In this document: in pieces, positions 2,587-60,622 of the stretch
How the letters are laid out: the number at the start of each line of letters is the position of its first letter
Position numbering within the stretch: position 1 is the first letter of the stretch
Origin: a virus
Taxonomy: Duplodnaviria; Caudoviricetes
Direction: 5' to 3' (one strand)
IMG/VR virus record: IMGVR_UViG_2671180073_000002
Location: 1,356 to 65,355 of that record
Length of the DNA: 64,000 bases
The notes under the pieces: model-generated
Databases searched by the model: none
What the model was told of the DNA's origin: nothing
What the model saw: only the letters and a program-made list of their open reading frames with translations
Position numbers and translations under genes: made by a program

Positions 2587-3314
2587 ATCGCAAATCTCCG
2601 GTATTTATCGTACAACTCCATGCTGTGCGGCAAATGCTTTCGAACAAGTTGGTCGACTGCTTCAGCATATTTTTGAGTGGGGCCCTGAGCATGGCCATGA
2701 TCCCGCCGTGCCAGAACGTTCATGAGATTATGCAGATCACATTGCCATATCCAATGGGTGTAGTGGTTGACGTGTAGGAATAGGCGCGCTTGCTCCATGG
2801 CTATGCCGTTTTCGATGGCCGCTTCATACCTCGCGTAGCTGTCGCGGCAGGCGTCGTCCAACGATATTTGGAAAGCCCTTGCCTTCCCCACTTCCCCCGG
2901 ATTAAAGACATCGACAGGTCGCCCGCCCTGCTTCTTATCAGTTGTTTGTAAGACGACTTCATCCAGAGTCGGGATATACCATTCCTTGGGCAATTGAACG
3001 TACCGAGCAGACGCTTCGTTCAATCGCGCCGTTCTGTGACGAACAAACTGGCGCGCGACGAAGATAGGGAGCTTCATTTCTAGCCACACCACAACTTGCT
3101 CGAAGGGACCGGTATGCCAGTTCTTCATAAGGTAGCTATCGAGGCGTAAATCTTCCTCTCTCGCACGATCCTTATCCTGTCCCTCGAATGAGAAGCGAGC
3201 TGCGTTGGCAGGGTCGGTATCGTCGGCGTCAAATGCTGCATCGGGGCGTCTGGTTGGTCCAGACATGTTCCTCAACAGAACAAAGCCATGATCGAGTACG
3301 GGGAGCTTATTCAT
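2583..3314 (-). CDS. thyX: FAD-dependent thymidylate synthase
   Basis: RHRx7S motif (RHRTARLNEASARY), HTGPFE. Confidence 0.93.
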   Translation of the reverse strand: MNKLPVLDHGFVLLRNMSGPTRRPDAAFDADDTDPANAARFSFEGQDKDRAREEDLRLDSYLMKNWHTGPFEQVVVWLEMKLPIFVARQFVRHRTARLNEASARYVQLPKEWYIPTLDEVVLQTTDKKQGGRPVDVFNPGEVGKARAFQISLDDACRDSYARYEAAIENGIAMEQARLFLHVNHYTHWIWQCDLHNLMNVLARRDHGHAQGPTQKYAEAVDQLVRKHLPHSMELYDKYRRFAI

Positions 3315-12990: not shown

Positions 12991-13056
12991 ATCTTAGCAA
13001 ACTAAGATACATGAGTCAAGAGAAATATTAGTGCACTAAGATCATTCTGCTACAAT
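12991..13056. promoter_or_regulatory. pL promoter with operators OL1/OL2, plus a divergent extended -10 promoter
   Basis: Minus strand TTGACT-17-TAAGAT; operators ATCTTAGCAAACTAAGAT (12991-13008) and ATATTAGTGCACTAAGAT (13025-13042); plus strand TGcTACAAT. Confidence 0.85.
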
Positions 13057-13087
13057 AGTCCCATGATGTTTAGAAGGGGCTTATGGG

Positions 13088-13384
13088 ATGGATCAGGAAA
13101 TTGCCGAGGACAAGCAGATGCAGAAACAGGCAGTTCGATTAGTTATGATCGAATGGAAAGACAGTAGACGAGTGATTGATGGCTGGTCCGGGTTGGCCGA
13201 GATAGGAAAACAGAACTGCTGCGATTGTGTGTCAGTCGGATTTTTGATCCAGGATGACGAAAACGTGAAGGTGCTCGTGGCGAATGTCGCGGACGTGGAG
13301 TTCGATATGCAGGCGACAGCGGGAATCGTAATACCCACTGGCGCCGTTACTGCTATAAAGCCCCTGGTTGAGCGCTTAACTTAA
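13088..13384 (+). CDS. Hypothetical protein
   Basis: LVMIEWKDS...CVSVGFL...IPxGAV pattern; follows the divergent promoter. Confidence 0.7.
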   Translation: MDQEIAEDKQMQKQAVRLVMIEWKDSRRVIDGWSGLAEIGKQNCCDCVSVGFLIQDDENVKVLVANVADVEFDMQATAGIVIPTGAVTAIKPLVERLT

Positions 13385-13412
13385 TTGAGGTGAAATATGG
13401 AAAACAATGTAA

Positions 13413-13649
13413 TTATTGAGTGGCTTGAAGGCGCGCCAGTGACGCCTGAATGCTTGAAATCACTTTCTGGGCAATTTCGGGATGAATCGAAAACATCATT
13501 GGAGTTGGTATGGGTAGAGCCTCCACAGTCGTTGCTACCGATAACTGAAGAAGCACGCAGCCTTTCTCAAAATCAACTGCGCCACGGCTAGTCACAACAT
13601 ATAGCAAATCATCGCTATTTATCTTTTCATACGTTACATTCTGAGACAT
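13413..13649 (-). CDS. Hypothetical protein
   Basis: AGGGAA RBS; antisense to ORF 13397..13591. Confidence 0.45.
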   Translation of the reverse strand: MSQNVTYEKINSDDLLYVVTSRGAVDFEKGCVLLQLSVATTVEALPIPTPMMFSIHPEIAQKVISSIQASLARLQATQ

Positions 13650-13784
13650 TTTGATTCCCTCGTTCGTGAAGTTGTAATGCGGAATGGCCGCTCACCTGCC
13701 TACCAGGTGTGGCCGCTTCCCATATTACAAATTAAGGGAAATCATGATATTGGACTAACGTACACCAGAACTTGAGTGGGGGTA

Positions 13785-14018
13785 TTAATTCCTCTTTCCG
13801 GTCCTGGCATTCGAATGATTACCCGGCGCTATCGTGCGCTTCCGGTTCTCCGTAGCAACATGCAGCAAATGCAGTTCTCGTCGCGCCATTTCGGTGAGCC
13901 TCAGCAACTCGTCCGTTTTAACCTTTAATTCAGATCGCTTTCCGACAGTCGGCAGCTCGCGCACTATCTTGTCGATAGCGTCCAAGTTGGCAAGGAGGCG
14001 GGTTGTTGATTCGTCCAT
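13785..14018 (-). CDS. Hypothetical protein
   Basis: Follows the nuclease in the cI operon. Confidence 0.45.
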   Translation of the reverse strand: MDESTTRLLANLDAIDKIVRELPTVGKRSELKVKTDELLRLTEMARRELHLLHVATENRKRTIAPGNHSNARTGKRN

Positions 14019-14027
14019 AGCGGCAGG

Positions 14028-14477
14028 TTAAACGTACTGCACTACTCGAGATAAAGTATGACGTCTCATTTTTCGGAATTCCCATGGTGGGATAGGGGAG
14101 GGCTCGGACCATAAACCGCGCTTTTCTACCTTTGCGCCATGCTCCAGAACATATAGATCGTGATCCTTGGCGTATTGCCGATATACCCAGGCCATACCTC
14201 GGCTGACCTGCTCAGCGTTGGCGTCAACGCCATCACACTTGATCCGGGCAACCGTTCGTTTATACCGATCTTTTGCTTGAGGCTTCACCTCTGCCTGTTT
14301 GCCGAAGCAAAGATCAGAAAGTGATTGCTTGGAGCGTGTGCCAAACGCCTGACGTTTCTCGGGTGCGTCAATCTCAGCGAGGCGGATCTTGATCTGCTGT
14401 TTATCCGGAGTCAAAACGGTGAGCGTATCACCATCGGAAATGCCGATTACGGTAGCGAGGAAGGCGGCAAGGAGCAC
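14028..14477 (-). CDS. Thermonuclease (SNase-like)
   Basis: SDGDT, IRLAEIDAPE, DRYKR, RGLW, PPWEFR. Confidence 0.93.
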   Translation of the reverse strand: MLLAAFLATVIGISDGDTLTVLTPDKQQIKIRLAEIDAPEKRQAFGTRSKQSLSDLCFGKQAEVKPQAKDRYKRTVARIKCDGVDANAEQVSRGMAWVYRQYAKDHDLYVLEHGAKVEKRGLWSEPSPIPPWEFRKMRRHTLSRVVQYV

Positions 14478-14483
14478 AGTGGC

Positions 14484-15197
14484 TCACTTCTGAGAAGGTT
14501 TATCGAGTTCTCCATGAAACTCGACATAACCAGGAAGCTCGCTTGATGGAGTGGTCGCCTCCGGCATTATTGCTCGAACCCGACGCACAACCTCTTTAAA
14601 GCGGGCATCATAGGATTTTTCAATCCATTTCGGGTTATTCCGCAAGATTTCGTCCTGTCTTAGAGCCTCATCCCATGCACCAGGATCGTTTGCCTCCCAA
14701 TGAGTAATGTAGTGGTTGCGGTTTTTTGCTTGAGCAACCTGTTCTTCGACGCTTGGTTTAGTTTGAGAATTGGTCTTTGTTGTTTTCTTCCCGCACACCG
14801 CGTGGAATACGCTTTCTCCTACAGAGCCTGGCATTATTGCGGACTTGCCTTCGCTTTCGCTTTTGGGTGTGGCGCGGTCTGCAACCTTTCCTTTGCCGTC
14901 TGTTTCTGAATAAAAAACCAGTTCTTTAAGGATGCTCGTCCTTTTTGGGCAGTCTATTATCGATAGTGATTTCGTCGAGAAATACGTGATTCCAATCGCA
15001 TTCTTCTGGATGTTGGCATAATTTATCAGTTGCCAAAACTCAAAACGATTTTTTTCCTTGATCATGGATGGTTCGTGTACAAAATACATATCGTCATCAT
15101 AGGAACTCGTTATGTAGATCCATTCCGATGATGGATTGCTCGACGCAGAATGCGGCCACATCATAAATATGACGAGGGCTGCCGCCACTTTTAACAT
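14484..15197 (-). CDS. Exported protein: signal peptide + surface-adhesin-E-like domain + copy of a scaffold-protein segment
   Basis: MLKVAAALVIFMMWPHSASS signal; W...IDC...PGS...VC domain; C-terminal 66 aa match the scaffold protein. Confidence 0.8.
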   Translation of the reverse strand: MLKVAAALVIFMMWPHSASSNPSSEWIYITSSYDDDMYFVHEPSMIKEKNRFEFWQLINYANIQKNAIGITYFSTKSLSIIDCPKRTSILKELVFYSETDGKGKVADRATPKSESEGKSAIMPGSVGESVFHAVCGKKTTKTNSQTKPSVEEQVAQAKNRNHYITHWEANDPGAWDEALRQDEILRNNPKWIEKSYDARFKEVVRRVRAIMPEATTPSSELPGYVEFHGELDKPSQK

Positions 15198-15231
15198 TTT
15201 TCCCTCTCTTAACGGTGAAACAATTGATAGT

Positions 15232-15492
15232 CTAGTCATTAATCGGAGACTTGCTGATTATTTGCCGCAGCAGTTTTGCCACGAGCACCAGAAGCATCCC
15301 GACTGCGAAGGTCGCATTCCTATGCAACTCTCCGGCAGTATTCGTAACGTAACTTCGTCTCGGTTTTTTATACATGGCAGCAAAGGCAATGCCTATTAGC
15401 TTCCCCATTTTTGCATCATTCAGCAGGTCCTGAAGAGCTTCGACGGTGCTATGGGATATGGTGTCGTCGGTGAGTACAAACGGGGGTTTCAT
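15232..15492 (-). CDS. Hypothetical protein coupled to cI; paralogue of 48858..49151
   Basis: ATGA overlap with cI stop; shared LLxxAxxGxxIGxA...GM...AKLL pattern. Confidence 0.7.
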   Translation of the reverse strand: MKPPFVLTDDTISHSTVEALQDLLNDAKMGKLIGIAFAAMYKKPRRSYVTNTAGELHRNATFAVGMLLVLVAKLLRQIISKSPIND

Positions 15493-16004
15493 AAGTCATT
15501 CTTCCTTCTGCGTTGATTCTCCATATCGGAGACGTGCTGATAATCGGATGGCCCGTCGTAATCTATTTCCCCTTTTCTCCTGGCCGGCGCTTTATCTTTC
15601 GGGTTTCTATTTTTATTTTGTTTCGATTTTATTGGTTGGGTTTCGTCTGTATCAGCTGAGTTTTCAGTAGGGGTTATCCCGGATTTCTTCATTAAGAAAA
15701 CGCATAGATCTGAAACATGTTTCAGATCATCTTCTTGCAGCGAATACATTGCTTCCGAGATCTGATTCATGAGCTTCTCGCTTTCAGAAAGAGCGTGATC
15801 TCCGGTTCCTTTCGACAGCCATTCAGGGCGAACGCCCAGTATCCTGGCCGCACACAAAAGGTTCTTTCCTTTTATCTCTGTTTCCGGGTTATTAAACCAA
15901 TGTGAGATAGCTCCGGACGATAGACCGCACCCCTTCCATATATCTGTTTTCTTTTTGCCTGATTTATCCAAGGCAAACTTCAGGCGTTCGGCAAGCGTTT
16001 TCAT
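15489..16004 (-). CDS. cI: CI-like repressor (XRE HTH, no recognisable S24 peptidase domain)
   Basis: TLAERLK...LSSGAISHW...LGVRPEWLSKGTG; divergent from cro. Confidence 0.85.
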   Translation of the reverse strand: MKTLAERLKFALDKSGKKKTDIWKGCGLSSGAISHWFNNPETEIKGKNLLCAARILGVRPEWLSKGTGDHALSESEKLMNQISEAMYSLQEDDLKHVSDLCVFLMKKSGITPTENSADTDETQPIKSKQNKNRNPKDKAPARRKGEIDYDGPSDYQHVSDMENQRRRKNDL

Positions 16005-16067
16005 CTTAGTATAGTAAACAAAAAATATCTTAGTGCGCTTGCATCATGATTCTTAGTGTGCTAAGAT
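16003..16067. promoter_or_regulatory. OR3/OR2/OR1 operators with pR and pRM
   Basis: Three TCTTAG-based 18-mers (16003, 16027, 16050); pR TTGCAT-17-TAAGAT. Confidence 0.85.
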
Positions 16068-16073
16068 TTATCC

Positions 16074-16265
16074 ATGAACATTCCAGATAACGAAATCATT
16101 GATGCGCTCGGCGGCTCTTCCGCTGTTGCTGTTTTGTGCGAGGTCACTGTAGGCGCTGTGTCGCAGTGGAAGACTGATGGCATACCGAAGGCACGCCTAA
16201 TGTATCTCAAAGTCATCCGCCCAGACATCTTCCTCTCCCCCTCCAAATCAAAGGAGGTGGCGTGA
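16074..16265 (+). CDS. cro: Cro-like repressor
   Basis: IIDALGGSSAVAVLCEVTVGAVSQWKTDGIP. Confidence 0.88.
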   Translation: MNIPDNEIIDALGGSSAVAVLCEVTVGAVSQWKTDGIPKARLMYLKVIRPDIFLSPSKSKEVA

Positions 16266-16441
16266 ACGATAAAGAACGGGCAGCGCTAGAAACTGCGCGA
16301 TACGAACTCGTAACGCTTGATGGTCTGACTGCGGCAGATGGTGCTGCGCCAGATAAAACCTTTGTCATAAACACCAGAAAAAGTATTGCGCTGATTGACG
16401 AAGTGCTTAACGAATCCTCAGGGGCAAATAAACATCCTTGA
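16262..16441 (+). CDS. Small 59-aa protein (not in ORF track)
   Basis: GGAGGT RBS; GTGA overlap with cro stop. Confidence 0.5.
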   Translation: MNDKERAALETARYELVTLDGLTAADGAAPDKTFVINTRKSIALIDEVLNESSGANKHP

Positions 16442-16619
16442 TGTGCGCGGCGAAGTACTGACCTTTTGAATGGGATGCCATTAGACGAGCATGAATCGTA
16501 TCCGGAACGCCAGAGAAGCGATAAATGCCGCCATTGATGAATTCGATTTCGAGTTTTCTGGTTTTAGGATCATAGCCCACCGCACGAATGCTGGTGGATG
16601 AAACAAAAACTCTGTCCAT
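16407..16619 (-). CDS. KTSC domain protein
   Basis: VSSTSIRAVGYD...LEIEF.NGGIY...VP...SKGQYF. Confidence 0.9.
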   Translation of the reverse strand: MDRVFVSSTSIRAVGYDPKTRKLEIEFINGGIYRFSGVPDTIHARLMASHSKGQYFAAHIKDVYLPLRIR

Positions 16620-16768
16620 GGAGATTCCTTTTATGAAGTTTGATGTGGAACTCAAACTCTACCATAACCGGAATCTCCGCCCATTACCCGCCCGGCCGTT
16701 TCCCTCCCTCTTGTGCCGGACGGCTTTCCCTCTCCGCAATGGAGGGGGACTTTTTTAAGGATTGAAAC

Positions 16769-17026
16769 ATGGATGCCAAATTTGCACGATCCGGCAGAAC
16801 CTCGGTGAGAGGAAAGCGTGGCGAGCGTCTGGAGTTCCAGACAGACCCCGAAACCTTGGAAATCATCAGCCTTCTTGCTGTGCGAGCCGGTATGCCCCGG
16901 TCTGAATTTATCAATGAAATCATTACAGTATTTGCTCACGGCCAGCAGTCGATAGAGGAAGCATACATCAACAGAACGAGAATGATTGCCGGAAGAATCT
17001 CGGGACAAATTCGGGACGAACTATGA
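16769..17026 (+). CDS. CII-position DNA-binding protein (RHH-like)
   Basis: Position; GMPRSEFINEII pattern. Confidence 0.55.
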   Translation: MDAKFARSGRTSVRGKRGERLEFQTDPETLEIISLLAVRAGMPRSEFINEIITVFAHGQQSIEEAYINRTRMIAGRISGQIRDEL

Positions 17027-29426: not shown

Positions 29427-29596
29427 TTTATATCGCACTAGCCATTGTTTGCTTGCCTATATGGGCTGTCGTAATCGCTGAGCGGATCGCTATCTATTAC
29501 GTATGGCGCGAGTTCGATTGCCACTACCGTACTGACCATCGGTTTCGTGGGCTGCACGGATGGGTGGTTGCGATGTTGAGGGGGCGCAATCTATGA
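29414..29596 (+). CDS. Small membrane protein
   Basis: Fills the terL-portal gap, coupled. Confidence 0.45.
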   Translation: MESVIYIALAIVCLPIWAVVIAERIAIYYVWREFDCHYRTDHRFRGLHGWVVAMLRGRNL

Positions 29597-31641
29597 CAGC
29601 TGAAGCTCCAATCAAATCGGATATATCGATCGAGGCGTACGACAAGATATGCCGCGATATAAGAAACGCTCCCAAGTGGCGGGTCGACTCGGATACCGAT
29701 TGCGATTACTACGATGGAATGCAGACCAGCAAGGATGTTATTGAGCGACTGAAGCAAGCCGGCATACCTCCGCAAGACAGCAACCTGATCAAGCCGACGA
29801 TCAATGCCGTATTAGGCCTTGAGGCTCGTTCACGCACCGATTACAAGGTTACCTCAGACGACGAGCAGCAAGCCGAGATAGCCGAAGGCTTGTCCGCCAA
29901 GATCAAAGAGGTAGAAACCGAGTCACGCGCCGATCGGGCAATGTCCGACGCCTACTCGAGCATGATCCGCGCCGGTATTGGCTGGGTTGAGGTGTCCCGC
30001 GAGTTCGATCCGCTCAAGTATCCCTATCGGGTGCGTGAAGTCCATAGAAACGAAATCCACTGGGACTGGACAGCCAAGGAACCTGACCTATCCGACGCCC
30101 GTTACCTCCGCCGTGATAAGTGGGTTGACCGCGAGCAGGCCTTGAAGATGTTTCCGGATGAGGTTGCGATCATTCAGAACTCATGGAATCGCTGGACCTC
30201 GCTTGATGTGTACGATGGTGCCGATACCAACATGGCCAGGGCGTACGAGGTCGAGCAGACTTGGGGCAAGAATCAAGAGGATTATCTGAATCACTCTTCC
30301 GGCATGATTCGCCTATCAGAGTTGTGGTATCGGCATTACGAAGATTCGCACGTCCTGGCGCTGCCTACCGGCCAATCCATTGAGTACATCGAGGATAGGC
30401 TAGACCATCAAGCCGCCGTCGCTCAAGGGCTGGTGCAGGTCCAAAAAGCGTTATTGCCTCGAGTGCGCGTATCAATCTGGCTTGGGCCGCACAAACTTAT
30501 GGACGTGCCAACACCGCTTCCGCACACCAATTTCCCTTACGTTCCATTCTGGTGTTTCCGCAAGGATAGAAGCCGGACGCCCTACGGCCTAATACGCGAC
30601 ATGCGGGGGCCGCAGGATCAGATTATCGACTTGGATATTCTGCTCTACGAGGTCCTGAATTCGGTAAAAGTCGAGGTGGACAATGACGCGCTGGATCTGA
30701 GCCAGAATTCATATCAGGAAGTCGCGCAGAACATGCAGTCACTGCGTTCAATGACCGTATTGAACGCACAGAGACGGAGCGCGAACGGCTTTAAAGTTAC
30801 CCGGGAACATGCTCTTGCTCAGCAAGTGTTCCAGCTCATGCAACAGCGTGAAAGCCGCATTGAGTCGGTTGGCGGCATATACCGAGCAATGTTGGGTGCA
30901 TCGACTCAAGCCACCAGTGGCGTCGCCATTAATAACCTGGTTGAACAAGGATCAACTGTTTTAGCTGAGCCCAATGATAACTTCCGTTACGCCCGCCGTA
31001 TCGTTGGCGAGCAGCTTATCGCTTTTGTGAAGCAGGATATGCTGGGCAGGCCAACTCAGGTTGCGGTTCAGCAAGGTAATAAACAAAAAGTCGTTTACTT
31101 TAACAGGCAGATCATGACCGATTCCGGGCCTGCGGTAGAAAACGACATAGCGGCCGCGCAGGTGAAGGTGGTGCTGGAAGATATACCGGCTACCCCGACT
31201 TACCGCGCACAGCAGTTGCAATCCTTTAGTCAGATGGTTACTGCCGCGCCACCTCAGTTCCAGGCTGTGCTATATCCGGCCATGCTCGAGCTATCTGATG
31301 TGCCGAACCGGCATGAGTTGGCCGATCAGTTGCGGATGATGGCGGGCACTGGTGGGGCTGATGAGCAAGTGCAGAAACTCCAGCAGCAGGCACAACAGGC
31401 CATGCAAGAGCAGCAAGCCCAGTTCCAGGCACAGATGGAGCAGATGGGGCAGGTAGTACAGGGATTGCAAGCTCAACTTGCGGAATCCAAGCAAGCTATT
31501 GATGACAAGTCTCGCGAGCTTGACCTTAAAGAGCGCGATTTGGACATTAAGGCGGAGAAGGTCGAGATAGATGCTCAACTTGCGGCAGAGAAGTTATCGC
31601 TTGAACACGTCAATAAAGCGTTATCTGAAAGGACAATCTAA
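29593..31641 (+). CDS. Portal protein (P22-like, long helical C-terminal barrel)
   Basis: DYYDGMQ, NLIKPTIN, GIGWVEV, FPYVPFW, SGVAI; Gln-rich tail. Confidence 0.9.
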   Translation: MTAEAPIKSDISIEAYDKICRDIRNAPKWRVDSDTDCDYYDGMQTSKDVIERLKQAGIPPQDSNLIKPTINAVLGLEARSRTDYKVTSDDEQQAEIAEGLSAKIKEVETESRADRAMSDAYSSMIRAGIGWVEVSREFDPLKYPYRVREVHRNEIHWDWTAKEPDLSDARYLRRDKWVDREQALKMFPDEVAIIQNSWNRWTSLDVYDGADTNMARAYEVEQTWGKNQEDYLNHSSGMIRLSELWYRHYEDSHVLALPTGQSIEYIEDRLDHQAAVAQGLVQVQKALLPRVRVSIWLGPHKLMDVPTPLPHTNFPYVPFWCFRKDRSRTPYGLIRDMRGPQDQIIDLDILLYEVLNSVKVEVDNDALDLSQNSYQEVAQNMQSLRSMTVLNAQRRSANGFKVTREHALAQQVFQLMQQRESRIESVGGIYRAMLGASTQATSGVAINNLVEQGSTVLAEPNDNFRYARRIVGEQLIAFVKQDMLGRPTQVAVQQGNKQKVVYFNRQIMTDSGPAVENDIAAAQVKVVLEDIPATPTYRAQQLQSFSQMVTAAPPQFQAVLYPAMLELSDVPNRHELADQLRMMAGTGGADEQVQKLQQQAQQAMQEQQAQFQAQMEQMGQVVQGLQAQLAESKQAIDDKSRELDLKERDLDIKAEKVEIDAQLAAEKLSLEHVNKALSERTI

Positions 31642-34262: not shown

Positions 34263-34426
34263 CAGGAGCGGGGGCGAAAGCCCCTTTCTGCGTTCATGGA
34301 GACGAACTCCCTTTACCGGCAAGGTAAATGAAGTTTGTTTTCTCAAACCGCGCTAACGGCGATACCGCAGTTTTTATCAACCCCGAAAGGGCGCGCTCAC
34401 TGCGTTAAGAAGTGGAGATGAAGGCA

Positions 34427-35380
34427 ATGGAAGTAGATCAGCTTACGGATGAGCAAATTGCAAACCTTACGCCGGAACAAATCGAAGAGTTGGAGAACGA
34501 CCCCAGCAAAGTCGACGAAATTCTCGGCAAGCAAGCGGCAAAGGATGAGTCCAAACCGGAAGTGAAAAGCGTGGCTAACGACGCGGACAAAGAAGAGCCG
34601 GTCGTTCTGAATAAGAGCGGCAAGGGGATTATTCCTTACGAGAAGCACAAGGAATTGCGAGTGGAGAATTCAGCGTTGCGTGAACAACTGCAGTCTGCCC
34701 AAGCGGAAAACGCGAAGGCAACCGAGAAGTTGGAATCGCTGCTGAAGGCTAGGGAAGCGGCCACGACCGGCAAGGATGAGGCGAATGCAGATGATGCCAT
34801 AGCCAAGCATCTGGCCACGCTCAAGAACGATATGCCCGAACTCCACGAAGTAATTACCTCTGTCCTCAAAGGAAGTCGTGAGCAAGGCGAAAAGCTGAAC
34901 GAAACGCTGCAAGAGCTGAAGCGCGAGAAGGAGGAATCCGACCGCGTTAAGCAATTGAGCGTTGCCGAGCAAGTCGCTGAAGCCAAGGACAATAACCCTG
35001 ACTTGACACATTGGGAGAGCAACGATCCGGAAGCTTGGGACGAAGCCATGAAGCAGGACGAGATTCTTCGGAATACCAGCAAATGGGCCGGAAAGCCCTA
35101 CGCTGAGCGGTTCGAGGAAGTAGCCCGCCGAGTGCGCGCCATTATGCCTGACGCCTCTGCACCAAAGAAAGCAGATGAGCCGGAGCAGACCAAGGCTAAG
35201 GCGAAAGCCAAGCTAGACGCTGCGCCGGCACGGAAACCTACAACCCTTTCGGATATTCAAGGTGGCGCGCCTGTTTCTGAAGGTGACGAGATCGCGAATC
35301 TGAAGCCGCATGAACTTACGGCCAGGCTCATGAAAATGTCGCCACAGAAAGCTGCCGCCATGAGAGCCGAATTAGACTAA
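34427..35380 (+). CDS. Capsid scaffolding protein
   Basis: Acidic helical protein directly before MCP; IIPYE motif; alternative starts at 34412/34418. Confidence 0.8.
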   Translation: MEVDQLTDEQIANLTPEQIEELENDPSKVDEILGKQAAKDESKPEVKSVANDADKEEPVVLNKSGKGIIPYEKHKELRVENSALREQLQSAQAENAKATEKLESLLKAREAATTGKDEANADDAIAKHLATLKNDMPELHEVITSVLKGSREQGEKLNETLQELKREKEESDRVKQLSVAEQVAEAKDNNPDLTHWESNDPEAWDEAMKQDEILRNTSKWAGKPYAERFEEVARRVRAIMPDASAPKKADEPEQTKAKAKAKLDAAPARKPTTLSDIQGGAPVSEGDEIANLKPHELTARLMKMSPQKAAAMRAELD

Positions 35381-35392
35381 GGAAATACTGAA

Positions 35393-36664
35393 ATGGCTGA
35401 AACAAATGTAGCAAGTGGCAGTTCGATTGCCATTAAACACTATAGCGCGGCACTTTTCGCCAATACGCTGAAAGGCGCGTCTGCAATTGAAAACCTCGTC
35501 GGTCCTGTCGAGCCCAATTCCGCGATGGAAAAGGTGGCAGGCCAGACTGAACCGGGGATGCCGATCGTTCGCATCGATAACCTGATGAAGTCGGCGGGCG
35601 ACATCGTTTCGCTGGATCTGGTTGATACGATCAGCGGCGAACCTCTCATGGGCGATGTCAACCGTGAAGGCAAGGGTGACGCGCTTTCCTTCTCTTCGAT
35701 GGAAATCAAGATCAACCTTTCCAGTAAAGTGATCGATGCGGGCGGCAGTATGAGCCAACAACGCACGAAGCACCAGTTGCGTGAAATTGCTCTTGCCCAG
35801 TTGTCCGGCTACTTCCCGCGGCTGGATAACCAGGAAACTCTGGTGCACCTTGCTGGCGCGCGCGGTTCGCAGACCGGCTCCGATTGGACGATTCCCGTTC
35901 AATCGAGCGCCAAGTTTACGGACATCATGGTCAATGCGGTAAAGGCCCCGACCTATAACCGCCATTTCGTGGTGAACGGCGCGGGCTTGACCGCTGGCGG
36001 GCAGCAACTCAATTCCATCGCCTCTACCGATCAACTGAAACTGGTTCATCTTGACCTGCTCCGCAAGCGCCTGGATGACATGGACCAGCCTTTACAATCG
36101 GTGAAGCTCGCCGGTGATCGCGCTGCTCAGACCTCCAAAATGTGGGTATTCCTTGCCACGCCCAATCAGTACTCGGTATTGCTGAGCGAAGGCTCGCTGC
36201 GCGCATTTCAGCAAAACGCCGTGAACCGTGCTGCGTATCTCGATAGCCGTCATCCGCTGTTCGCCGGTGAAGTCGGCATGTGGAATGGCATTCTGGTGAT
36301 CAAGAATGAGCGGGCAATCCGCTTCATGCCCGGCGAGAACACCAGTATCGTTACTGCCGCGAATGCGCCGACCGCTACCGAAACCAGCCAGGCTGTAAGT
36401 GGTTCGCTGACCGCCGGTTACGCTGTCGAACGCGGCCTGTTGCTCGGTGCGCAAGCCCTGGGTGTCGCCTACGGCAAGACTAAGGTTTCCGGTATGCAGT
36501 TCGGCTGGAAAGAGCACTGGTACAACTTCGAGAGCAATCTGGAGGTCATGGGTGAGAAAGTGTGCGGCAAGAGCAAGGTGCGCTTCTCGGTCGATGACGG
36601 TACCGGTTCCAAGGTTCCTACCGACTTCGGCGTGATCGCGGTTGACTCTGCGGTTCCTCTCTAA
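35393..36664 (+). CDS. Major capsid protein (N4-gp56/DUF4043 type)
   Basis: LMKSAGDIVS, GGSMSQQRT, PLFAGEVGMWNGI, LLGAQAL, DFGVIAVD. Confidence 0.9.
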   Translation: MAETNVASGSSIAIKHYSAALFANTLKGASAIENLVGPVEPNSAMEKVAGQTEPGMPIVRIDNLMKSAGDIVSLDLVDTISGEPLMGDVNREGKGDALSFSSMEIKINLSSKVIDAGGSMSQQRTKHQLREIALAQLSGYFPRLDNQETLVHLAGARGSQTGSDWTIPVQSSAKFTDIMVNAVKAPTYNRHFVVNGAGLTAGGQQLNSIASTDQLKLVHLDLLRKRLDDMDQPLQSVKLAGDRAAQTSKMWVFLATPNQYSVLLSEGSLRAFQQNAVNRAAYLDSRHPLFAGEVGMWNGILVIKNERAIRFMPGENTSIVTAANAPTATETSQAVSGSLTAGYAVERGLLLGAQALGVAYGKTKVSGMQFGWKEHWYNFESNLEVMGEKVCGKSKVRFSVDDGTGSKVPTDFGVIAVDSAVPL

Positions 36665-53938: not shown

Positions 53939-56900
53939 ATGCCAGAAGGTTTAGACGAGTTCAGCAATCTGTTTGCTAAAAAGTACGGTGGCGCTGGAAA
54001 TTCCGCTATCAGAACCGAAGATGAAACCGCCGACCTGGGCGGTTTTTTTTCGTCCAAGTATGGAGCGCCTGCTGAACCCGAGAAACCGGCCATACCCAAT
54101 GAACAAGGCGGTTTTATCGCCTCTGCCAAGCGTGCAGCCGGCGCTGGCATCAAAGGCGCTGGCCAAGCCGCGGCCGACTTCATCCCCGGAGTCGGCCAAG
54201 ATAACGCTCTCAAGCGCGCTGGGCAGGGAATCATCGACGCCAATCCCACGGCAGTAAATAGCCTTGAGGATATTGCCGACAAGCCCGGTACCGCCGTGGC
54301 TGAAGCAACAGGCAATGCCGCCTCATCGATGGCCGGTATTGTCGGGGCAAGGGCAGTAGGGCAGGGCATCACCGCATTATCTCCATTGGCCGGTCCCGCT
54401 GCGCCACTGGTTGCCGCTGCCGGACAGGTTGTGTCATGGCTTGGACCTGCCGCTATTGCCGCTCTGCCTTCCTTTGGTGGAATCCGTGACAAGCAGATTC
54501 TGGCTGATCCAGACAATCAGGATTCAGCTAAATCCAAGGCCGTTGCTGCGCTGGGCGCTGCAACCGTAGGCGCTATCGAATCCCGCTTTGGTCCGCAGAA
54601 TTGGGCACTTGCTGCGATGACGAAAGAGGGCAGGGCGAAGCTGGCTGAGAAGTTTGCGGCTACCACGCTGAAGGGATCGATCGGCAAAGGGATAGTGAAG
54701 GGTGCCGCAATCGAAGGCGCTGAAGAGCTTGTTCAGAATCCCGTTGAGCAACTTGCCTCATTCGAAAACCCGACTACGCCAGAGAATATAGATGAAACGC
54801 TGTTCGGTGGCGCCATGGGTGCTATTGGCGGCGGGGTTCTTGGCGGTGGAACGGGCGCGGTATTTCGCCGACAGGAAAATGCTGAGCACGTTAAAACAAT
54901 CCTCGGCAAACCAGTAACCGAAGTCTCCGATGGCGTCCTAAAATACACCTCGAACCGTGGCGGCGAACGCGCGAAGGCTGCGGCTCAAACTGAATTGAAT
55001 CGTCGCGCGACTGAAGGCGTTGATCCTTCCGTTGCGGATGCCCCAGAATCAGCCAGCGAAGCCGTAGACCGCATCATTTCTACCGGACGGGATAAGGCAG
55101 ACGAAATACGGGAAACGCGGCAGGCGGCTTCTGATGCGATTCAGGATGGCGTGTTTGATGAGCCAAGCCATGTTAACGACGCCATTAATATGGTTGATGC
55201 CCCCACTCCCGAGCGCATCGAAACGCTCAACGCGCAAATGGATGCCCTCGCAGAAGGCCGTAAGCCTGGCGTGTTGCTGACACCCGGCGAACCTATGCCG
55301 CATTCCCTGCCTGAAGGCGTTCAAGCCGCCGAGATACCGGGCCGGGGCACTCTTCTGTATCGCGATGACGCTACGCTACAAGCCGCCCTCGATAACCGCA
55401 TGGGCGAGGCGCTGGGCTATGGCATCGATGAGAAGCCGGGAACGGATCAGGTTGTCACTGCGCGGGACGCGAACGGCACCGTGATCCAGGACGTGGCTAC
55501 CGATGGAAGGCCGGAAGTGGAGCAGGCTGCGGCTGGCGTGGCGGGGGAGCATGGATCCGTTGAGGTCAGGCCGGTTGGTGAGGCGATGGCTGAGCGGGCG
55601 GCTAATTCCCGAGAATTCGATGGAATTAAAACCCAGGCCGATGTCGTGATTCCGACATCGAATAAAAATCAATCAGTTACGACCGATACGGGAATCCCCG
55701 TAACGCAAGCCATCGGTCCTGCAAGGGAAACCCGCCCCACGCAACAACCTTCTATCGAAGATAAATCACGTGAGGCGCAATCTCCCGCAGGGAATGAAAG
55801 CGTATCAGAGGAAGCCGGAGCTGTACAGCCTGCAAAGAAGGCTCTAAAGCCTAAGAAGAAGGAAATTAGAGCAAACCTGGAAGATCATTTCCGGCCCGGC
55901 AATATCATCAGAAATAGTTATTGGAGAAATCATGAGCGGGTCTTATCGTTCAATCAGAGCGACAATAACTGGTCTGTTACTGTCCAAACAGTAAAAAAGG
56001 ATGCCGCCGGAAATTGGGTAAACACTGAGGCACCGCGTACGCATAGAACGTTTCCCTCGTTCGATAAAGATATTGTGGTTGAGCGTCATCCAGTGATTCA
56101 TCCAGAACCGGGAAGTGCAGATTCTTCTAGCGAAATAAATGCGCAAGAATCACATCCTATTCGCGCCCATCTGGAATCGTTAATCAAACGCCGCGCCCCT
56201 GCAAAACAGGGCGGGAAAGACTTGTCCAAAGCAATTGAGCGCGCCAAAGAAGTAATGGAAGGTAAGCGGGAGGCATCAACTGTCGAGCATAGATATTTCC
56301 GCCTGCACGCCAAGGCGTTCGAGAAGGCTGATATGGAATCAGCTAAGATTTTGCGGAAGATTGCGGAGGCGGTGAAGCCGAAGGCGCTTGAGACTCAGGC
56401 CGCCAGTTCGTCATTTGAACGCTTCGCCGCACTCGGGCATGAGATTGGGACTGCAAAGCAAGCGCTGGCCGATGCAGAAGAAATAACCGGGCTGCGCCTT
56501 GGGCTGCAAATTGCTTATGTGAAACTCAGGGCTGGCAACCCGGCTCGATTTGTGCCAGAAAGTCGTACGCTGGAGGTTTCGAGGGACTGGAAATACCCAA
56601 GGTCTGAGGGCGCCCAGTATCTGGCAGAAGAGCTATTCCATGCCGTTGATGTCTTGTCGGGCGACCGGACGCTGAGCGCATCCAGTAAACGACTGGATTT
56701 AAAGACTGGCGATATAGCTCAGGAGGTCATTAGCCATTACGACGATAAAAGCGCTTATACGGAATTTCTATCTTACCCTCTTGGCGACAACAGTTTGTCC
56801 GACTCGGTTAAAAAAGCTGAACTTTTTGCGCGGCTTGCTGTACTATATTTCGGTGAGCCTGCAAGGATGCAGCGCTATTTGCCAACAGCTTATGGAGCAT

Positions 56901-59900
56901 TCAATGAAATATTCCGGTTCTCAATTAACCCAGTTACTGGGGAAATATCACGAAGCCTTTGGTCCTTTGCCGGAGGGCGTCCACCGTTGGGCAGCGAACA
57001 CGGGGCAAGTGGACAGGATGTATCTGGGAATGGAGGAATCTCTCAAAGTGGGCAAAGAGCCGAACTGGGAAGACTACGTAAATCTATCTGGCGTGTCTTC
57101 AAGGCCGACCCCTTGGGAGGAAAGGTCTCTTTCAGTCGCGTAGATACAAGGTCATTCAAATCTCGCCTGCAGGCGTATAAGGAAAAGAGCGCGAGGAAAA
57201 GCGAATCTCCGAAGTTCAGCCGCGATGCAGCTCAAATAGCAGAAACCCGTAATCGACTAAAAGCAGCATCCGCTAAATCCAAACAGGCCGCCAAACAAGG
57301 TGGCCTTTCTGTTTCTGACGTCAAGAAATTCATTGAGCCCTTGCAACAAGCCGGGTTCAAGAAGATCAATATTGCCGCTACTCAGAATGATCTCCCTCAG
57401 AAAATAAAGGAACAGATCAAGTCTCAGAAAGCAGGAGGCGTGCGCGGGGTTTATCTCCCGACAACGGATGAAATCTGGCTGGTTGCCGATCAGCTAAATG
57501 ATGCGTTTGAAGTGGCTATGGTTACCATGCATGAGGCGCGTCACCGGGGCCTGAGAAAGATGTTCGGTGCGGACGTTGATCCGATCATGCGGCAAATATA
57601 CGCCACGAATAAGCGCGTGCGCGATGCCGCCGATAGGATGATGAAAGCACATGCTGGCATGTCCAAGGAAACGGCTGTCGAGGAAGTTCTCGCCGATATG
57701 TCCATTGACAGGGTGAGGGCGCTCAACGGATGGAAGAAGCTCGTGCGCTTCATTCAGCAGTGGATCTCGGAAAAGTTCGACATTACATTTACTGATGCCA
57801 TGGTAGAGCAATTGGTGGCCGGGGCGGAAGTTGTGGGCATGGCGGAGAACGAGGTATCGCTGTTCGATGAGAAACAGGCGGAGGTTTATAGGGATGCGTC
57901 GGATGGCACGATGTTCAGCCGCATGCCACCCCAGCCCGGCGGCAACGCATCATGGGACGCGCCAGAGCCCTCAAAGCTCGATAACCTAATCTACTCACTC
58001 CAGAATAAACATATCGACATGAAGCGCGTTATGGAGTCCGTGCGTGAGTCTGGACAGCAACTCGCCGAGAAGTTTGACGCCTATTTGCAAGAAGAGCTAT
58101 TCCATGGAAGATCGGCGAAGCGCACCAAGGATTTCGTAAACAGCGAACTCAAGCCGCTCATCGCCGGGCTGAAGCTGCGCGGCCTGTCGATCGATGAACT
58201 GGATAAGTACCTGCACGCTCGGCACGCGCAAGAGGCTAACGCGCTTATCGCTCAACGTGACCCCAATATGCCCGACGGCGGCTCGGGCATGACGAATCAG
58301 GAGGCCAGGGATTACTTTGCCAATCTGCCAGCCGATAAGAAACGTAAGCTCGAGCAGACCGCGAAGAAGGTCGATGACATCATTTCCCAGACCCGCGACC
58401 TGTACGTTTCCTATGGGCTCATCAGCCAGGCAGAGGCCGATAGCTGGGCGCAGATGTTCAAGTTTTATGTGCCGCTCATGCGCGAGGATAAAGATGGCGG
58501 CATGGGTATCGGGCAGGGCTTTTCCATTAAAGGGAAAGAGGCAAAGCATCGGACCGGTTCGAAACGTGCCGTGGTTGATATTCTGGCCAACATCGCTTTG
58601 CAGCGTGAGAGGGCGATTGTGCGCGGGGAAAAGAACAGGGTTGCCGTTTCGCTCTACGGGTTGGCGAAACTGAATCCGAATGATGAATTCTGGACCACAG
58701 AAAACGTTCCCCAGCGTCATTACGACGAAAAGACCGGGCAGGTGGTTGAGCGCGCCGACCCTCGATATAAAGAACGAGCGAATGTAGTGGTATCCAAGAT
58801 TGTCGATAGCAAGGGGCGGGTAACTGAGCGAGCCGTGATCTTCAACGAGAACGACGAACGAGCTATGCGCATGGCCCAGGCAATCAAGAATCTGGATGCT
58901 TCGCAGCTCGAGGGGCTGATGGGCGTATCTGCCAAGGTCACGCGCTACTTTGCCGCGATCAACACTCAGTACAATCCGGTCTTTGGTATCGTTAACCTGA
59001 CGCGCGACTTGCAGGCTTCTTTGCTCAATCTTTCGTCTACGCCTATCGCCGGACACAAGGCTGCGGTGCTCGGCAATATCCTCCCGGCCATTCGCGCTAT
59101 TTATGCATCCTCCCGGGGCGAACGCAAAGGCAATCAGTCAACGTCTACCATGGCCGCCCTATGGGATGAGATGCAGAAAGAAGGCGGCATGACCGGTTAC
59201 CGCGACCTGTTCAAAACCAGCGAGGATCGGGCAAATGCAATCAAGCGCGAACTGGATCCGACTGCCTGGATGAATAGCGGTTTGGGAAAGATATTTACCG
59301 CCGGCGGGGCCCTGAAAGTTCCGCTGGCCATCGCTCAGAAGCGGGCAGGGTGGTTGTTCGACTGGCTATCTGATTACAACCAAACGCTGGAAGGGGCAAT
59401 GCGGCTGTCGGTTTATAAGGTAGCGATCGATAAAGGCTTGAGCAAGGCGCGGGCGGCGAGCATTGCAAAAAATATTTCAGTTAATTTCAATCGGAAAGGC
59501 TCTTCTGGCCAGCAAGCCGGGGCCTTGTATGCATTCTTCAATGCTGCCATGCAAGGAACCGCGCGCATCGGCGAGACCATGACGACCATGGAAAAAGGGG
59601 ATATTAAAACATTCCGCTTCAATAAGGCCGGGAAGCAAATCATCGCTGGTGGGATCACGCTCGGCGCGGTTCAAGCGCTTGCACTCGCTGCCGCTGGATT
59701 CGATGATGACGAGCCGCCTGAGTTCGTGCGCGAGCGCAGCCTGATCATTCCGATAGGTGACAAGAAGTATGTAACCATTCCAATGCCGCTCGGCTTTCAC
59801 GCTATCCCGAACATAGGGCGCATTAGTACCGAGTTTGCCATGGGCGGTTTCAAGAAGCCGGCAGACCATACTATGCGACTCGCCGCGGTATTCGCTGAAG

Positions 59901-60622
59901 CGTTCAATCCAATCGGTAGCGCGGGATTCTCTATTCAGACCATCGCGCCTACCGCGATCGATTCGCTTGTCGCACTATCCGAAAACAAGGATTGGACCGG
60001 GAAGCCGATAGCCAAGGAGGATTTCAACAAGCTATCCCCGACACCCGGATTTTCTCGAAACAAAAATACCGCCAGCGATCCGGCAAAATGGATAGCGGAA
60101 GCGATCAATACTATCTCCGGCGGAAATAAGTATGTACCGGGTGTATTCAGTCCAACTGCAGATCAAATTGATTATCTTGCTGGGCAGGTAACCGGTGGAG
60201 TAGGGCGCGAATCAGGGAAGGCGCAGCAATCGGTTGCGGCTGTGCTGACCGGTGAGGATTTGCCGCCGCACAAGATCCCGCTGGTCGGGCGCTTCTATGG
60301 GAACAGTGAAAACTCATCTAGCCAAGGCAACGCCTTCTACTCCAACCTTAAACGAATCAATGAACTAGAAGCTGAACTTAAAGGAAGGCGGAAGGATCGT
60401 TTGCCGATCGATGAGTTTAAAGCCGAGAATCCGGAGCATCGGCTTGTTGTGCGCGCCAATCTGATCGAGCGACTGGTATCCAAGCAGCGAAAGATGAAAT
60501 CGGAACTGATTGAGAAAGACGCGCCCAATGAACAAGTGAAAGCCGTTGAGGAACGCATTACGAAGCTCATGACGGGCTTTAACGTTCGAGTAAAGGAGTT
60601 ACGACAAGAGGCCCGCCAGTAG
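53939..60622 (+). CDS. Large ejection/polyvalent protein (metallopeptidase-like HExxH, LPD38-like C-terminus)
   Basis: EGAEEL.Q, HEARH, VNFNRKG, FFNAAMQG, ENKDWTG.PI. Confidence 0.85.
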   Translation: MPEGLDEFSNLFAKKYGGAGNSAIRTEDETADLGGFFSSKYGAPAEPEKPAIPNEQGGFIASAKRAAGAGIKGAGQAAADFIPGVGQDNALKRAGQGIIDANPTAVNSLEDIADKPGTAVAEATGNAASSMAGIVGARAVGQGITALSPLAGPAAPLVAAAGQVVSWLGPAAIAALPSFGGIRDKQILADPDNQDSAKSKAVAALGAATVGAIESRFGPQNWALAAMTKEGRAKLAEKFAATTLKGSIGKGIVKGAAIEGAEELVQNPVEQLASFENPTTPENIDETLFGGAMGAIGGGVLGGGTGAVFRRQENAEHVKTILGKPVTEVSDGVLKYTSNRGGERAKAAAQTELNRRATEGVDPSVADAPESASEAVDRIISTGRDKADEIRETRQAASDAIQDGVFDEPSHVNDAINMVDAPTPERIETLNAQMDALAEGRKPGVLLTPGEPMPHSLPEGVQAAEIPGRGTLLYRDDATLQAALDNRMGEALGYGIDEKPGTDQVVTARDANGTVIQDVATDGRPEVEQAAAGVAGEHGSVEVRPVGEAMAERAANSREFDGIKTQADVVIPTSNKNQSVTTDTGIPVTQAIGPARETRPTQQPSIEDKSREAQSPAGNESVSEEAGAVQPAKKALKPKKKEIRANLEDHFRPGNIIRNSYWRNHERVLSFNQSDNNWSVTVQTVKKDAAGNWVNTEAPRTHRTFPSFDKDIVVERHPVIHPEPGSADSSSEINAQESHPIRAHLESLIKRRAPAKQGGKDLSKAIERAKEVMEGKREASTVEHRYFRLHAKAFEKADMESAKILRKIAEAVKPKALETQAASSSFERFAALGHEIGTAKQALADAEEITGLRLGLQIAYVKLRAGNPARFVPESRTLEVSRDWKYPRSEGAQYLAEELFHAVDVLSGDRTLSASSKRLDLKTGDIAQEVISHYDDKSAYTEFLSYPLGDNSLSDSVKKAELFARLAVLYFGEPARMQRYLPTAYGAFNEIFRFSINPVTGEISRSLWSFAGGRPPLGSEHGASGQDVSGNGGISQSGQRAELGRLRKSIWRVFKADPLGGKVSFSRVDTRSFKSRLQAYKEKSARKSESPKFSRDAAQIAETRNRLKAASAKSKQAAKQGGLSVSDVKKFIEPLQQAGFKKINIAATQNDLPQKIKEQIKSQKAGGVRGVYLPTTDEIWLVADQLNDAFEVAMVTMHEARHRGLRKMFGADVDPIMRQIYATNKRVRDAADRMMKAHAGMSKETAVEEVLADMSIDRVRALNGWKKLVRFIQQWISEKFDITFTDAMVEQLVAGAEVVGMAENEVSLFDEKQAEVYRDASDGTMFSRMPPQPGGNASWDAPEPSKLDNLIYSLQNKHIDMKRVMESVRESGQQLAEKFDAYLQEELFHGRSAKRTKDFVNSELKPLIAGLKLRGLSIDELDKYLHARHAQEANALIAQRDPNMPDGGSGMTNQEARDYFANLPADKKRKLEQTAKKVDDIISQTRDLYVSYGLISQAEADSWAQMFKFYVPLMREDKDGGMGIGQGFSIKGKEAKHRTGSKRAVVDILANIALQRERAIVRGEKNRVAVSLYGLAKLNPNDEFWTTENVPQRHYDEKTGQVVERADPRYKERANVVVSKIVDSKGRVTERAVIFNENDERAMRMAQAIKNLDASQLEGLMGVSAKVTRYFAAINTQYNPVFGIVNLTRDLQASLLNLSSTPIAGHKAAVLGNILPAIRAIYASSRGERKGNQSTSTMAALWDEMQKEGGMTGYRDLFKTSEDRANAIKRELDPTAWMNSGLGKIFTAGGALKVPLAIAQKRAGWLFDWLSDYNQTLEGAMRLSVYKVAIDKGLSKARAASIAKNISVNFNRKGSSGQQAGALYAFFNAAMQGTARIGETMTTMEKGDIKTFRFNKAGKQIIAGGITLGAVQALALAAAGFDDDEPPEFVRERSLIIPIGDKKYVTIPMPLGFHAIPNIGRISTEFAMGGFKKPADHTMRLAAVFAEAFNPIGSAGFSIQTIAPTAIDSLVALSENKDWTGKPIAKEDFNKLSPTPGFSRNKNTASDPAKWIAEAINTISGGNKYVPGVFSPTADQIDYLAGQVTGGVGRESGKAQQSVAAVLTGEDLPPHKIPLVGRFYGNSENSSSQGNAFYSNLKRINELEAELKGRRKDRLPIDEFKAENPEHRLVVRANLIERLVSKQRKMKSELIEKDAPNEQVKAVEERITKLMTGFNVRVKELRQEARQ
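56904..57143 (+). CDS. Candidate overprinted 79-aa gene inside the large ejection gene
   Basis: GGAG RBS; protein-like sequence over a Gly/Ser-rich linker of the main frame. Confidence 0.45.
   Translation: MKYSGSQLTQLLGKYHEAFGPLPEGVHRWAANTGQVDRMYLGMEESLKVGKEPNWEDYVNLSGVSSRPTPWEERSLSVA

Follow-up and report, generated by a model that had tools for sequence, protein, structure and literature searches.

We analysed a window of 64,000 nucleotides (nt) from a virus of the Caudoviricetes (Duplodnaviria; IMG/VR record IMGVR_UViG_2671180073_000002, positions 1,356 to 65,355). We found that one gene of the prophage it contains, at 14484-15197 on the minus strand, encodes a two-domain protein of exported type whose C-terminal domain is homologous to the conserved core of a head-assembly protein encoded by the same prophage. 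The segment shared by the two proteins is real, ancient and under purifying selection. The order in which the gene lies, between a repressor gene and a gene for an SNase-family nuclease, is also recurrent, being found in the window and in a distant provirus. There is good support for the element being a short-tailed-type prophage of about 60 kb, of a Nitrosospira-like host and with head genes of the Sp5/933W kind, and equally good support for the gene in question, hereafter the fusion gene, being of accessory (moron) type and part of this prophage's immunity operon.

The fusion gene and the parts of its product of 237 amino acids (aa) are, with the evidence for each, including the predicted local distance difference test (pLDDT) of the structural model:

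14484..15197, minus strand: gene for the exported-type two-domain protein, 237 aa (list of open reading frames, ORFs; identical to database protein P0001)
15141..15197, minus strand: hydrophobic leader, residues 1-19, MLKVAAALVIFMMWPHSASS (hydrophobic-run rule, which is crude; pLDDT <50)
14784..15122, minus strand: Protein-E/Adhesin_E domain, residues 26-138, a beta sheet and a C-terminal helix with two conserved cysteines (PF16747, Foldseek)
14754..14783, minus strand: flexible linker, residues 139-148 (low pLDDT: residues 142-144 <50, block mean 64)
14547..14753, minus strand: five-helix domain, residues 149-217, homologous to the head-assembly core (BLASTP, phrog_479, pLDDT >90)
14487..14546, minus strand: disordered tail, residues 218-237, SSELPGYVEFHGELDKPSQK (alignment A1; low pLDDT; also in P0003 and P0004)

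The shared segment had been noticed in a first-pass annotation, a reading of the letters by eye, as a stretch that aligns to the scaffold without gaps, and this is borne out by BLASTP. Residues 149-217 of the fusion protein align to residues 183-251 of the 322-aa product of 34412-35380(+) with 46/69 identical and 55/69 positive positions, ungapped, at an expect value (E) of 2e-30. When all ORFs of the window were compared with one another by BLASTP, a check of the kind that the annotation had proposed, these two proteins were the sole strong paralogous pair. At the DNA level, 135/207 nt are identical, distributed as 55, 56 and 24 of 69 over codon positions 1, 2 and 3. Codons agree at only 17 of the 46 identical residues, and the method of Nei and Gojobori (NG86) gives a nonsynonymous divergence (dN) of 0.22 with synonymous divergence (dS) saturated and not computable. 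The many synonymous differences, and the selection on the protein that they had been taken to indicate, are thus confirmed. The saturation of third positions (24/69) shows that the segment was not copied recently from the scaffold of this prophage, and in this sense the idea of such a copy has to be given up. Consistent with this, when the segment is compared with 53 Nitrosospira scaffold loci (several of which are the same genome reached by two tools), 38 to 49 of the 69 residues are identical, and the own scaffold, at 46, is in the middle of the range. Scaffolds of the genus share 49-65/69 residues with one another, and their third positions are similarly saturated. A tblastn alignment of the scaffold C-terminus that continues past the stop of the fusion gene into the SNase gene was gappy and weak, and we treated it as chance.

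34412..35380, plus strand: head-assembly (scaffold-like) protein, 322 aa, of the Sp5-ORF61/phrog_479 family (phrog_479 E 1e-55; directly upstream of the major capsid gene)
34958..35164, plus strand: conserved core domain, residues 183-251 of the head-assembly protein, paralogous to 14547-14753 (BLASTP; invariant columns)

The segment is the most conserved part of the family: it holds 9 of the 13 columns that are nearly invariant among 65 diverse members. The nearly invariant residues of the core motif, NP.L..W...DP..W..A...D..LR..P.W..K...RF.EV, are kept in the fusion protein. Residues 140-219 match phrog_479 (E 4e-16) and phrog_10114 (E 3e-10), covering only positions 182-263 of the 333 in the phrog_479 profile. 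The fusion protein therefore shares a domain with the phrog_479 family and is not a member of it, as it does not have the full-length architecture. This 69-aa domain is undescribed and folds confidently in the models, and it has neither a Pfam model nor a solved relative in the searches made. Modelled alone (alignment A3), it forms five short helices with a pLDDT of 82.7. Foldseek gave nothing better than E 1.3 against the PDB, and the wide fold search with VIA peaked at Z 6.1 (the InvH pilotin; root-mean-square deviation, rmsd, 4.9 over 67 residues), which is under the noise level quoted for helical models. BFVD returned one uncharacterised phage protein of 335 aa, the family profile found only coiled-coil noise among PDB sequences, and the ESM Atlas had no usable match. 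As modelled, the helical domain is thus without a recognised fold, which does not show that the fold is new.

The rest of the fusion protein points to a product made for export, a bead-on-a-string protein whose beta domain is stapled by two cysteines, and this architecture is well supported. Translation probably starts at the ATG at 15197, which we prefer because it has a Shine-Dalgarno-like GAGGG 5-9 nt upstream; the alternative ATG at 15239, which would give 251 aa, has no GAGGG before it. The leader is likely a Sec signal peptide, to judge from its residues, and looks like the signal peptidase I type; there is no cysteine among residues 1-25 and therefore no lipobox. The front domain matches PF16747 (Adhesin_E) from residue 26 to 136 over the full model length (E 7e-17, 62.1 bits against a cut-off of 23.7), so that the earlier description of an adhesin-E-like domain behind a signal-peptide-like leader holds. 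Foldseek placed it with the Protein E fold of Haemophilus influenzae (6gus, 3zh5, 3zh7) with E from 1e-5 to 8e-5, template modelling (TM) scores, normalised to the target, of 0.57-0.68 and rmsd of 3.5-4.5 over about 120 columns, and the columns of the cysteine pair are conserved among the orthologues that bear Adhesin_E (alignment A1). A weak Foldseek match of the same domain to PDB 9m3l chain B, from an entry on a Pseudomonas aeruginosa muramidase, was also seen (E 0.02, target-normalised TM 0.48). In the AlphaFold model of the whole protein (alignment A5; mean pLDDT 83.2), the leader (1-19) is unconfident, the beta domain carries a helix at 126-138, and the helical domain exceeds a pLDDT of 90 from residue 150 to 210. 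The predicted TM score of 0.52 for the whole protein suggests that the two domains are independent of each other. The tail has no second copy elsewhere in its own genome.

Exported forms of the domain are few, and their front parts are diverse. Among 5.8 billion clustered proteins, the whole fusion protein has four relatives that bear Adhesin_E (P0002-P0005). A query with residues 140-237 against 1.84 billion representatives gave 103 matches with E ≤ 1e-3. Of these, 73 are of scaffold length (305-386 aa) and 6 are scaffold fragments, 15 are of exported type or bear Adhesin_E, 7 are short and have no leader, and 2 are doubtful repeat proteins (P0081, P0085). The fronts of the exported proteins include one or two Adhesin_E domains (two in P0139), a leader with a coiled coil bearing a GGF motif (P0057, P0061, P0067, P0119) and a lipoprotein type (P0098); in P0151 and P0163 the domain follows the leader directly, and in P0082 and P0098 it occurs as a tandem pair. 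Several further searches were negative: phage records held no match for DNA 13000-17000 or for the fusion protein, viral contigs held no relative of the fusion protein, P0139, P0163 or P0119 used as queries, metagenome contigs did not match the coiled-coil-type alignment A4, and the four matching genomes among 401 in an order-level sample all had scaffold-type frames and no exported form.

Within this set, the domain stays constant, and it is the front part that diverges or is exchanged. Relative to the fusion protein, domain and front-part identities are 84% and 24% for P0005, 78% and 37% for P0003, and 75% and 17% for P0066; across eight relatives, the domain is conserved at 59-84%. Each of the 20 exported copies of the domain is nearer to some scaffold than to any exported copy from a different lineage. 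The margin is wide for the 12 copies of Nitrosospira type (62-80% identity to scaffolds against 37-44% to exported copies of other lineages) and small for the rest. In a quick tree, exported copies fall within different scaffold clades. Together, the tree and the pairwise identities suggest independent origins of the exported forms, which they do not establish.

The first-pass annotation had asked whether signal-peptide fusions of this kind occur in other prophages, and they do. On a provirus of 56 kb (L160; source name Herminiimonas sp. CN), a LexA-type repressor (HTH_3 and Peptidase_S24) is followed by P0082, a leader protein of 62 aa and an SNase with a canonical leader. P0082 consists of a leader, a coiled coil and two copies of the domain. 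The phage is distant from that of the window, with 39% identity in the capsid protein and 33% in the scaffold. On two Aeromonas proviruses of 58 kb (L151, L152), a lipoprotein of 226-237 aa ends in one copy of the domain; its gene lies beside that of a giant protein of 2546 aa, on the opposite strand, and is absent from the related phage phiARM81mr. The further expectation that each copy tracks its cognate scaffold stood only in part: for the Aeromonas lipoproteins the cognate scaffold takes 2nd to 4th place of all the scaffolds compared (45-48%), and it fares much worse in L160, as given below.

The genes around the fusion gene are:

15489..16004, minus strand: cI-like helix-turn-helix (HTH) repressor without an S24 peptidase domain (HTH_3 21.7 bits, just under the cut-off; phrog_4, transcriptional repressor, E 6e-10; DicA-like)
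15232..15492, minus strand: orf86, a small gene conserved with cI (51% and 31% identical copies behind cI in genomes G170 and G166)
14028..14477, minus strand: SNase-family nuclease with a short hydrophobic N-terminus (PF00565 E 1e-21)
16074..16265, plus strand: cro-like gene, divergent from cI (position; 72-80% identical copies opposite cI in G170 and G166)

The order on the minus strand is cI-like repressor, orf86, fusion gene, SNase and two small ORFs. It is tightly spaced, with 4 nt shared by cI and orf86 and 6 nt between the fusion gene and the SNase gene. This agrees with the earlier remark that the gene takes a rexAB-like position behind cI and beside an SNase. The slot downstream of cI and orf86 is a variable cargo island in related prophages. 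It holds HicB/HicA in G166 (L150:3164-3604), a lipoprotein on contig C25 of the own genome, and in G170 four small exported-type proteins (one Cys-rich, one lipoprotein, one GGF coiled coil and one of 89 aa) followed by an SNase (L149:3910-5673). One of the slot proteins of G170 has 40% identity, over 60 aa, to the front part of P0061-type domain proteins.

The small gene orf86 always lies behind a cI-like repressor in related prophages (31-51% identity; L149:3600-3857, L150:3641-3886), and further pairs of cI and orf86 occur in the own genome, with orf86 at C25:68827-69078 and C34:93038-93280. No family matches it, and it may contribute to immunity. A BLASTP likeness of orf86 to the scaffold N-terminus (35% over 48 aa) was ruled out by profile comparison (probability 0.13%). 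PADLOC-DB 2.0 holds no family for the fusion protein, orf86, the cI-like repressor or the scaffold, and its only match to the SNase is a weak one to the SNc+LTD candidate (E 3e-4). The SNase is multi-copy in Nitrosospira (69-76% nt identity; six places in G147:C1, for example) and always starts ML.A.FLATVIGISDGDT. The SNase gene lies in the frame of the fusion gene, and no more than a TGA and two codons intervene (14478-14486). Read-through at this point, hypothetical as it is, would tether the nuclease to the domain protein.

The structural genes place the 322-aa protein in its context:

29560..31641, plus strand: P22-like portal protein (PF16510 E 9e-110)
35393..36664, plus strand: major capsid protein (PF13252 E 2e-150)
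53939..60622, plus strand: giant polyvalent protein, 2227 aa, with an LPD38 domain (PF18857 E 2e-43)

The prophage spans from an integrase (7-963) to the giant LPD38 protein, after which a Cas3 gene comes next, and its head genes encode an Sf6-type small terminase, a large terminase, the P22-like portal, the 322-aa protein, the PF13252 capsid protein and an SU10-type adaptor. The phrog_479 family has no assigned function. Its profile finds orf52 of VT2-Sakai, which lies between the genes for portal and capsid protein, with a probability of 100% (E 3e-40), and from the gene order we infer that orf52 is ORF61 of Sp5 (ECs1222). In the Sp5 study, deletion of ORF61 left no head-like particles and no packaging, an antibody to ORF61 did not label virions, and the authors left its role open and gave that of scaffold to ORF65 (PMC5155283). 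The label of scaffold used by the first-pass annotation is imprecise: ORF61 is essential for head formation in Sp5, but for the 322-aa protein the name itself is an inference, the Sp5 authors having assigned it to another gene. Gene order would make Sp5 ORF65 the 223-aa gene that immediately precedes the one for the SU10-type adaptor (PF24175, E 5e-31; L072 (VT2-Sakai) 7850-9171, window 37943-38569). The ORF61 family is portal-proximal and has the usual position and build of a scaffold, so the labels of ORF61 and ORF65 may need revisiting. Searches with more distant family members matched 301 and 197 phage records. Most of these are Stx phages with short tails, and Vibrio and Aeromonas phages are also among them; the scaffold of the window itself matches among phage records only Achromobacter phage CF418P1 (29%). 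As for the giant protein, its homologue gp47 of phi24B is abundant in virions and has been proposed to be ejected to bridge the periplasm, in a preprint whose available part does not mention a scaffold or the ORF61 homologue gp70/gp71 (10.64898/2026.04.10.717836).

Two further loci of the same genome carry related sequences. A second related prophage (C33:51418-58041) has a capsid protein 92%, a portal 77% and a head-assembly protein 69% identical to those of the window, so that the strain is, by its sequence, a double lysogen of close relatives. A relic-like ORF of 46 aa (C15:161252-161347; L005:1453-1593) holds only the last helix of the domain, RFKEVVRRVRAIMP, and is flanked by a large protease-like ORF and another ORF. 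Within the window, the first-pass annotation had also tentatively joined the fusion gene to 49976-50500(+) in a single exclusion system. This gene follows an antirepressor gene and encodes a 174-aa protein with a hydrophobic N-terminus. The link finds no support, as the protein has no significant similarity to any protein of the window (best E 1.0-1.3): its best match is ORF 2583-3314 (E 1.0 over 39 residues), followed by two matches to the start of the giant protein (18 residues, E 1.3; 11 residues, E 2.8). It matches nothing in Pfam, PHROG, PADLOC or NCBIfam.

How might such a protein act? We put forward, tentatively, that it is an envelope-located block on the entry of related phages, acting as a decoy for a partner that these phages eject. 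In the head-assembly protein, the domain would hold another phage protein during procapsid assembly, and the protein held would be an internal one that is later ejected through the envelope. The giant LPD38 protein at 53939-60622 is a candidate for such an ejected protein and hence for the domain's partner, though a different internal protein of the virion could fill the role. The exported copy of the domain would wait, in a lysogenic cell, in the periplasm or on a membrane face. When a related phage injects, it would capture the ejected partner, spoil the trans-envelope conduit and so block the entry of DNA, and the downstream SNase may degrade any DNA escaping into the periplasm. The front parts, i.e., Adhesin_E, coiled coil or lipoprotein domain, would then be interchangeable carriers or anchors, and the helical domain the working end. 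As far as the genes can tell, the facts fit an accessory gene that would be expressed in the lysogen and whose selected, constant part is a head-assembly core domain placed outside the cytoplasm. A broader version, which we hold to be unlikely, would see in Sp5/933W-type prophages a two-part envelope exclusion system: the decoy would display a cargo-recruiting domain that seizes ejected proteins, an exported SNase would cut the exposed DNA, and leaderless short forms would poison head assembly in the cytoplasm.

Several observations weigh against a block on entry. The head-assembly protein is cytoplasmic, is not known in virions and would be expected to leave the head, so that a mimic in the periplasm is sensible only if the natural partner of the domain is later ejected. 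The second related prophage in the same genome (capsid 92%) implies that exclusion of relatives is not absolute or that the order of arrival mattered. The binding, export and expression of the fusion protein are all predictions, and export of the SNase is uncertain, given the very short leader conserved in the Nitrosospira copies. The fusion gene is rare and decaying. The scaffold type occurs in 37 of 42 other genomes of the genus, and the fusion only as a broken copy in N. tenuis Nv1 (G177, locus L036) and as fragments in N. multiformis Nl18 (G140, locus L071), both in chromosomal settings; two unpublished genomes, G151 and G164, count in these numbers, and no result hangs on them. The exported form is absent from all 70 viral-contig loci. 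Short forms without a leader exist (P0063, P0073, P0074, P0078, P0084, P0095). The two domain copies of P0082 are only 37% and 44% identical to their cognate scaffold, which ranks 66 and 16. Finally, the tree tests are weak: with only the 69 columns of the domain, the approximately unbiased (AU) test could reject neither a grouping of the fusion and the scaffold of its own prophage (p 0.46) nor one shared origin for every exported copy (p 0.31).

Among the leaderless forms, P0063, P0074 and P0073 have a coiled coil and the domain, stop at the domain end and do not have the head-assembly C-terminal region. By this build they could be dominant-negative or satellite-type assembly proteins.

There are rival explanations. 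In the main one, the domain would be a generic association module, the self-association domain of the head-assembly protein, which prophages took repeatedly from available DNA to multimerise exported cargo such as adhesins and lipoproteins; the product would then be a lysogenic-conversion protein of the surface or periplasm, unconnected with phage entry. Scaffolding proteins generally self-associate and the Protein E of H. influenzae is a dimer-forming adhesin; this explanation also gains from the tandem pairs of P0082 and P0098, the presence of the domain both with and without a leader, its compact independent fold on a floppy linker, and the rarity and easy decay of the gene. It is nonetheless somewhat doubtful in our view, since a domain that binds itself need not stay near the scaffolds of phages of the same host, and the Nitrosospira-type copies keep 62-80% identity to these despite saturated synonymous sites, with fronts at 17-38%. 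It also leaves unexplained the repeated linkage to a repressor operon and an SNase, and the swapping of carriers around a constant domain. In a second explanation, the domain protein serves the adjacent nuclease, for example as its anchor, its inhibitor or its guide within the envelope, for DNA scavenging, turnover of biofilm DNA or a general defence against incoming DNA, the likeness to the scaffold being a by-product of origin. The two genes are 6 nt apart in the same frame, the pairing is seen again in the distant provirus L160, and an SNase ends the cassette of exported proteins in G170. The last of these cuts both ways, as the proteins of that cassette do not have the domain; many SNase copies of the genus (those in six places of G147, for instance) are likewise without a domain protein, and no SNase lies beside the Aeromonas lipoprotein. 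We give a nuclease partner little credence.

Two explanations seem less probable still. The protein could serve the phage's own lytic cycle from the envelope, for example by preventing virions, once released, from attaching again to lysed or lysogenic cells, or by aiding lysis or release, and so not be aimed at other phages. It is prophage-encoded and resembles the scaffolds of phages of the same host genus, as one would then expect; its gene, however, is in the repressor operon rather than the late or lysis region and is missing from most related prophages, as no core function would be, and we think such a role very improbable. Least credible of all is a functionless chimera born of illegitimate recombination. 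The broken and fragmentary copies in two other genomes would agree with it, but the reading frame is unbroken, dN stands at 0.22 while synonymous sites are saturated, eight relatives conserve the domain at 59-84%, and the same domain occurs in independent architectures.

If the exported domain does capture a protein of an infecting phage, this would be a new logic of superinfection exclusion, in which a piece of the assembly machinery serves as bait outside the cytoplasm. It would also be the first functional handle on the core of the Sp5-ORF61 family, which is essential in Shiga-toxin-converting phages and has no assigned mechanism. In the literature searched, on superinfection exclusion with a scaffolding protein and on Nitrosospira prophages, we found nothing relevant and no paper on an exported protein with a head-assembly domain, in agreement with the earlier statement that there is no described precedent; the mechanism would be new if shown. 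Regardless of mechanism, the analysis defines a 69-aa domain, a variable slot behind cI and orf86 in prophages of ammonia oxidisers, and a recurrent order of repressor, domain protein and SNase. The traffic of prophages among nitrifiers is little studied, and markers of competition between phages would be useful there.

The comparison with known systems starts with the proteins to which the fusion protein is related. It has in common with Sp5 ORF61 and the phrog_479 family the conserved core that makes up its C-terminal domain, and only these 69 aa: three other features of the family, an N-terminal DGKH.IPY motif, a coiled coil and the SLSDIPGG region at the C-terminus, are absent. Its gene is in the immunity operon, whereas that of the family lies between the portal and capsid genes, and its leader and Adhesin_E domain are never found in the family. 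With Protein E of H. influenzae (PF16747; 3ZH5, 6GUS) it shares the fold and the Pfam match of the front domain at an identity of only 14-17%. Protein E is a lipoprotein, and the fusion protein differs from it in having no lipobox cysteine and in its extra helical domain. The host, moreover, is a nitrifier of soil and water, so a role as an adhesin on animal cells is not expected, unlike for Protein E.

Exported exclusion proteins of temperate phages include Llp of T5, Cor of phi80 and N15, Ltp of TP-J34 and gp15 of HK97, of which Ltp and gp15 are thought to act on the internal or tape-measure protein of the injecting phage. The fusion protein would resemble them as a small prophage-encoded protein, putatively of the envelope, whose gene lies where expression in the lysogen may be expected. 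It has no sequence relation to any of them, and to our knowledge none carries a domain derived from head assembly. In position its gene is also like rexA and rexB of lambda, which follow the repressor gene immediately and in the same orientation, but there is no homology. The rexAB products are found in the inner membrane and the cytoplasm and cause abortive infection, acting from inside, whereas the products of the fusion operon appear, from their leaders, to be exported. Finally, CpmB of the SaPIs and Sid of P4 are alternative scaffolds of satellites, cytoplasmic and acting on capsid size. In these too a scaffold-like protein of a mobile element interferes with a phage, and they are perhaps a better analogy for the leaderless P0063 and P0074 than for the exported protein.

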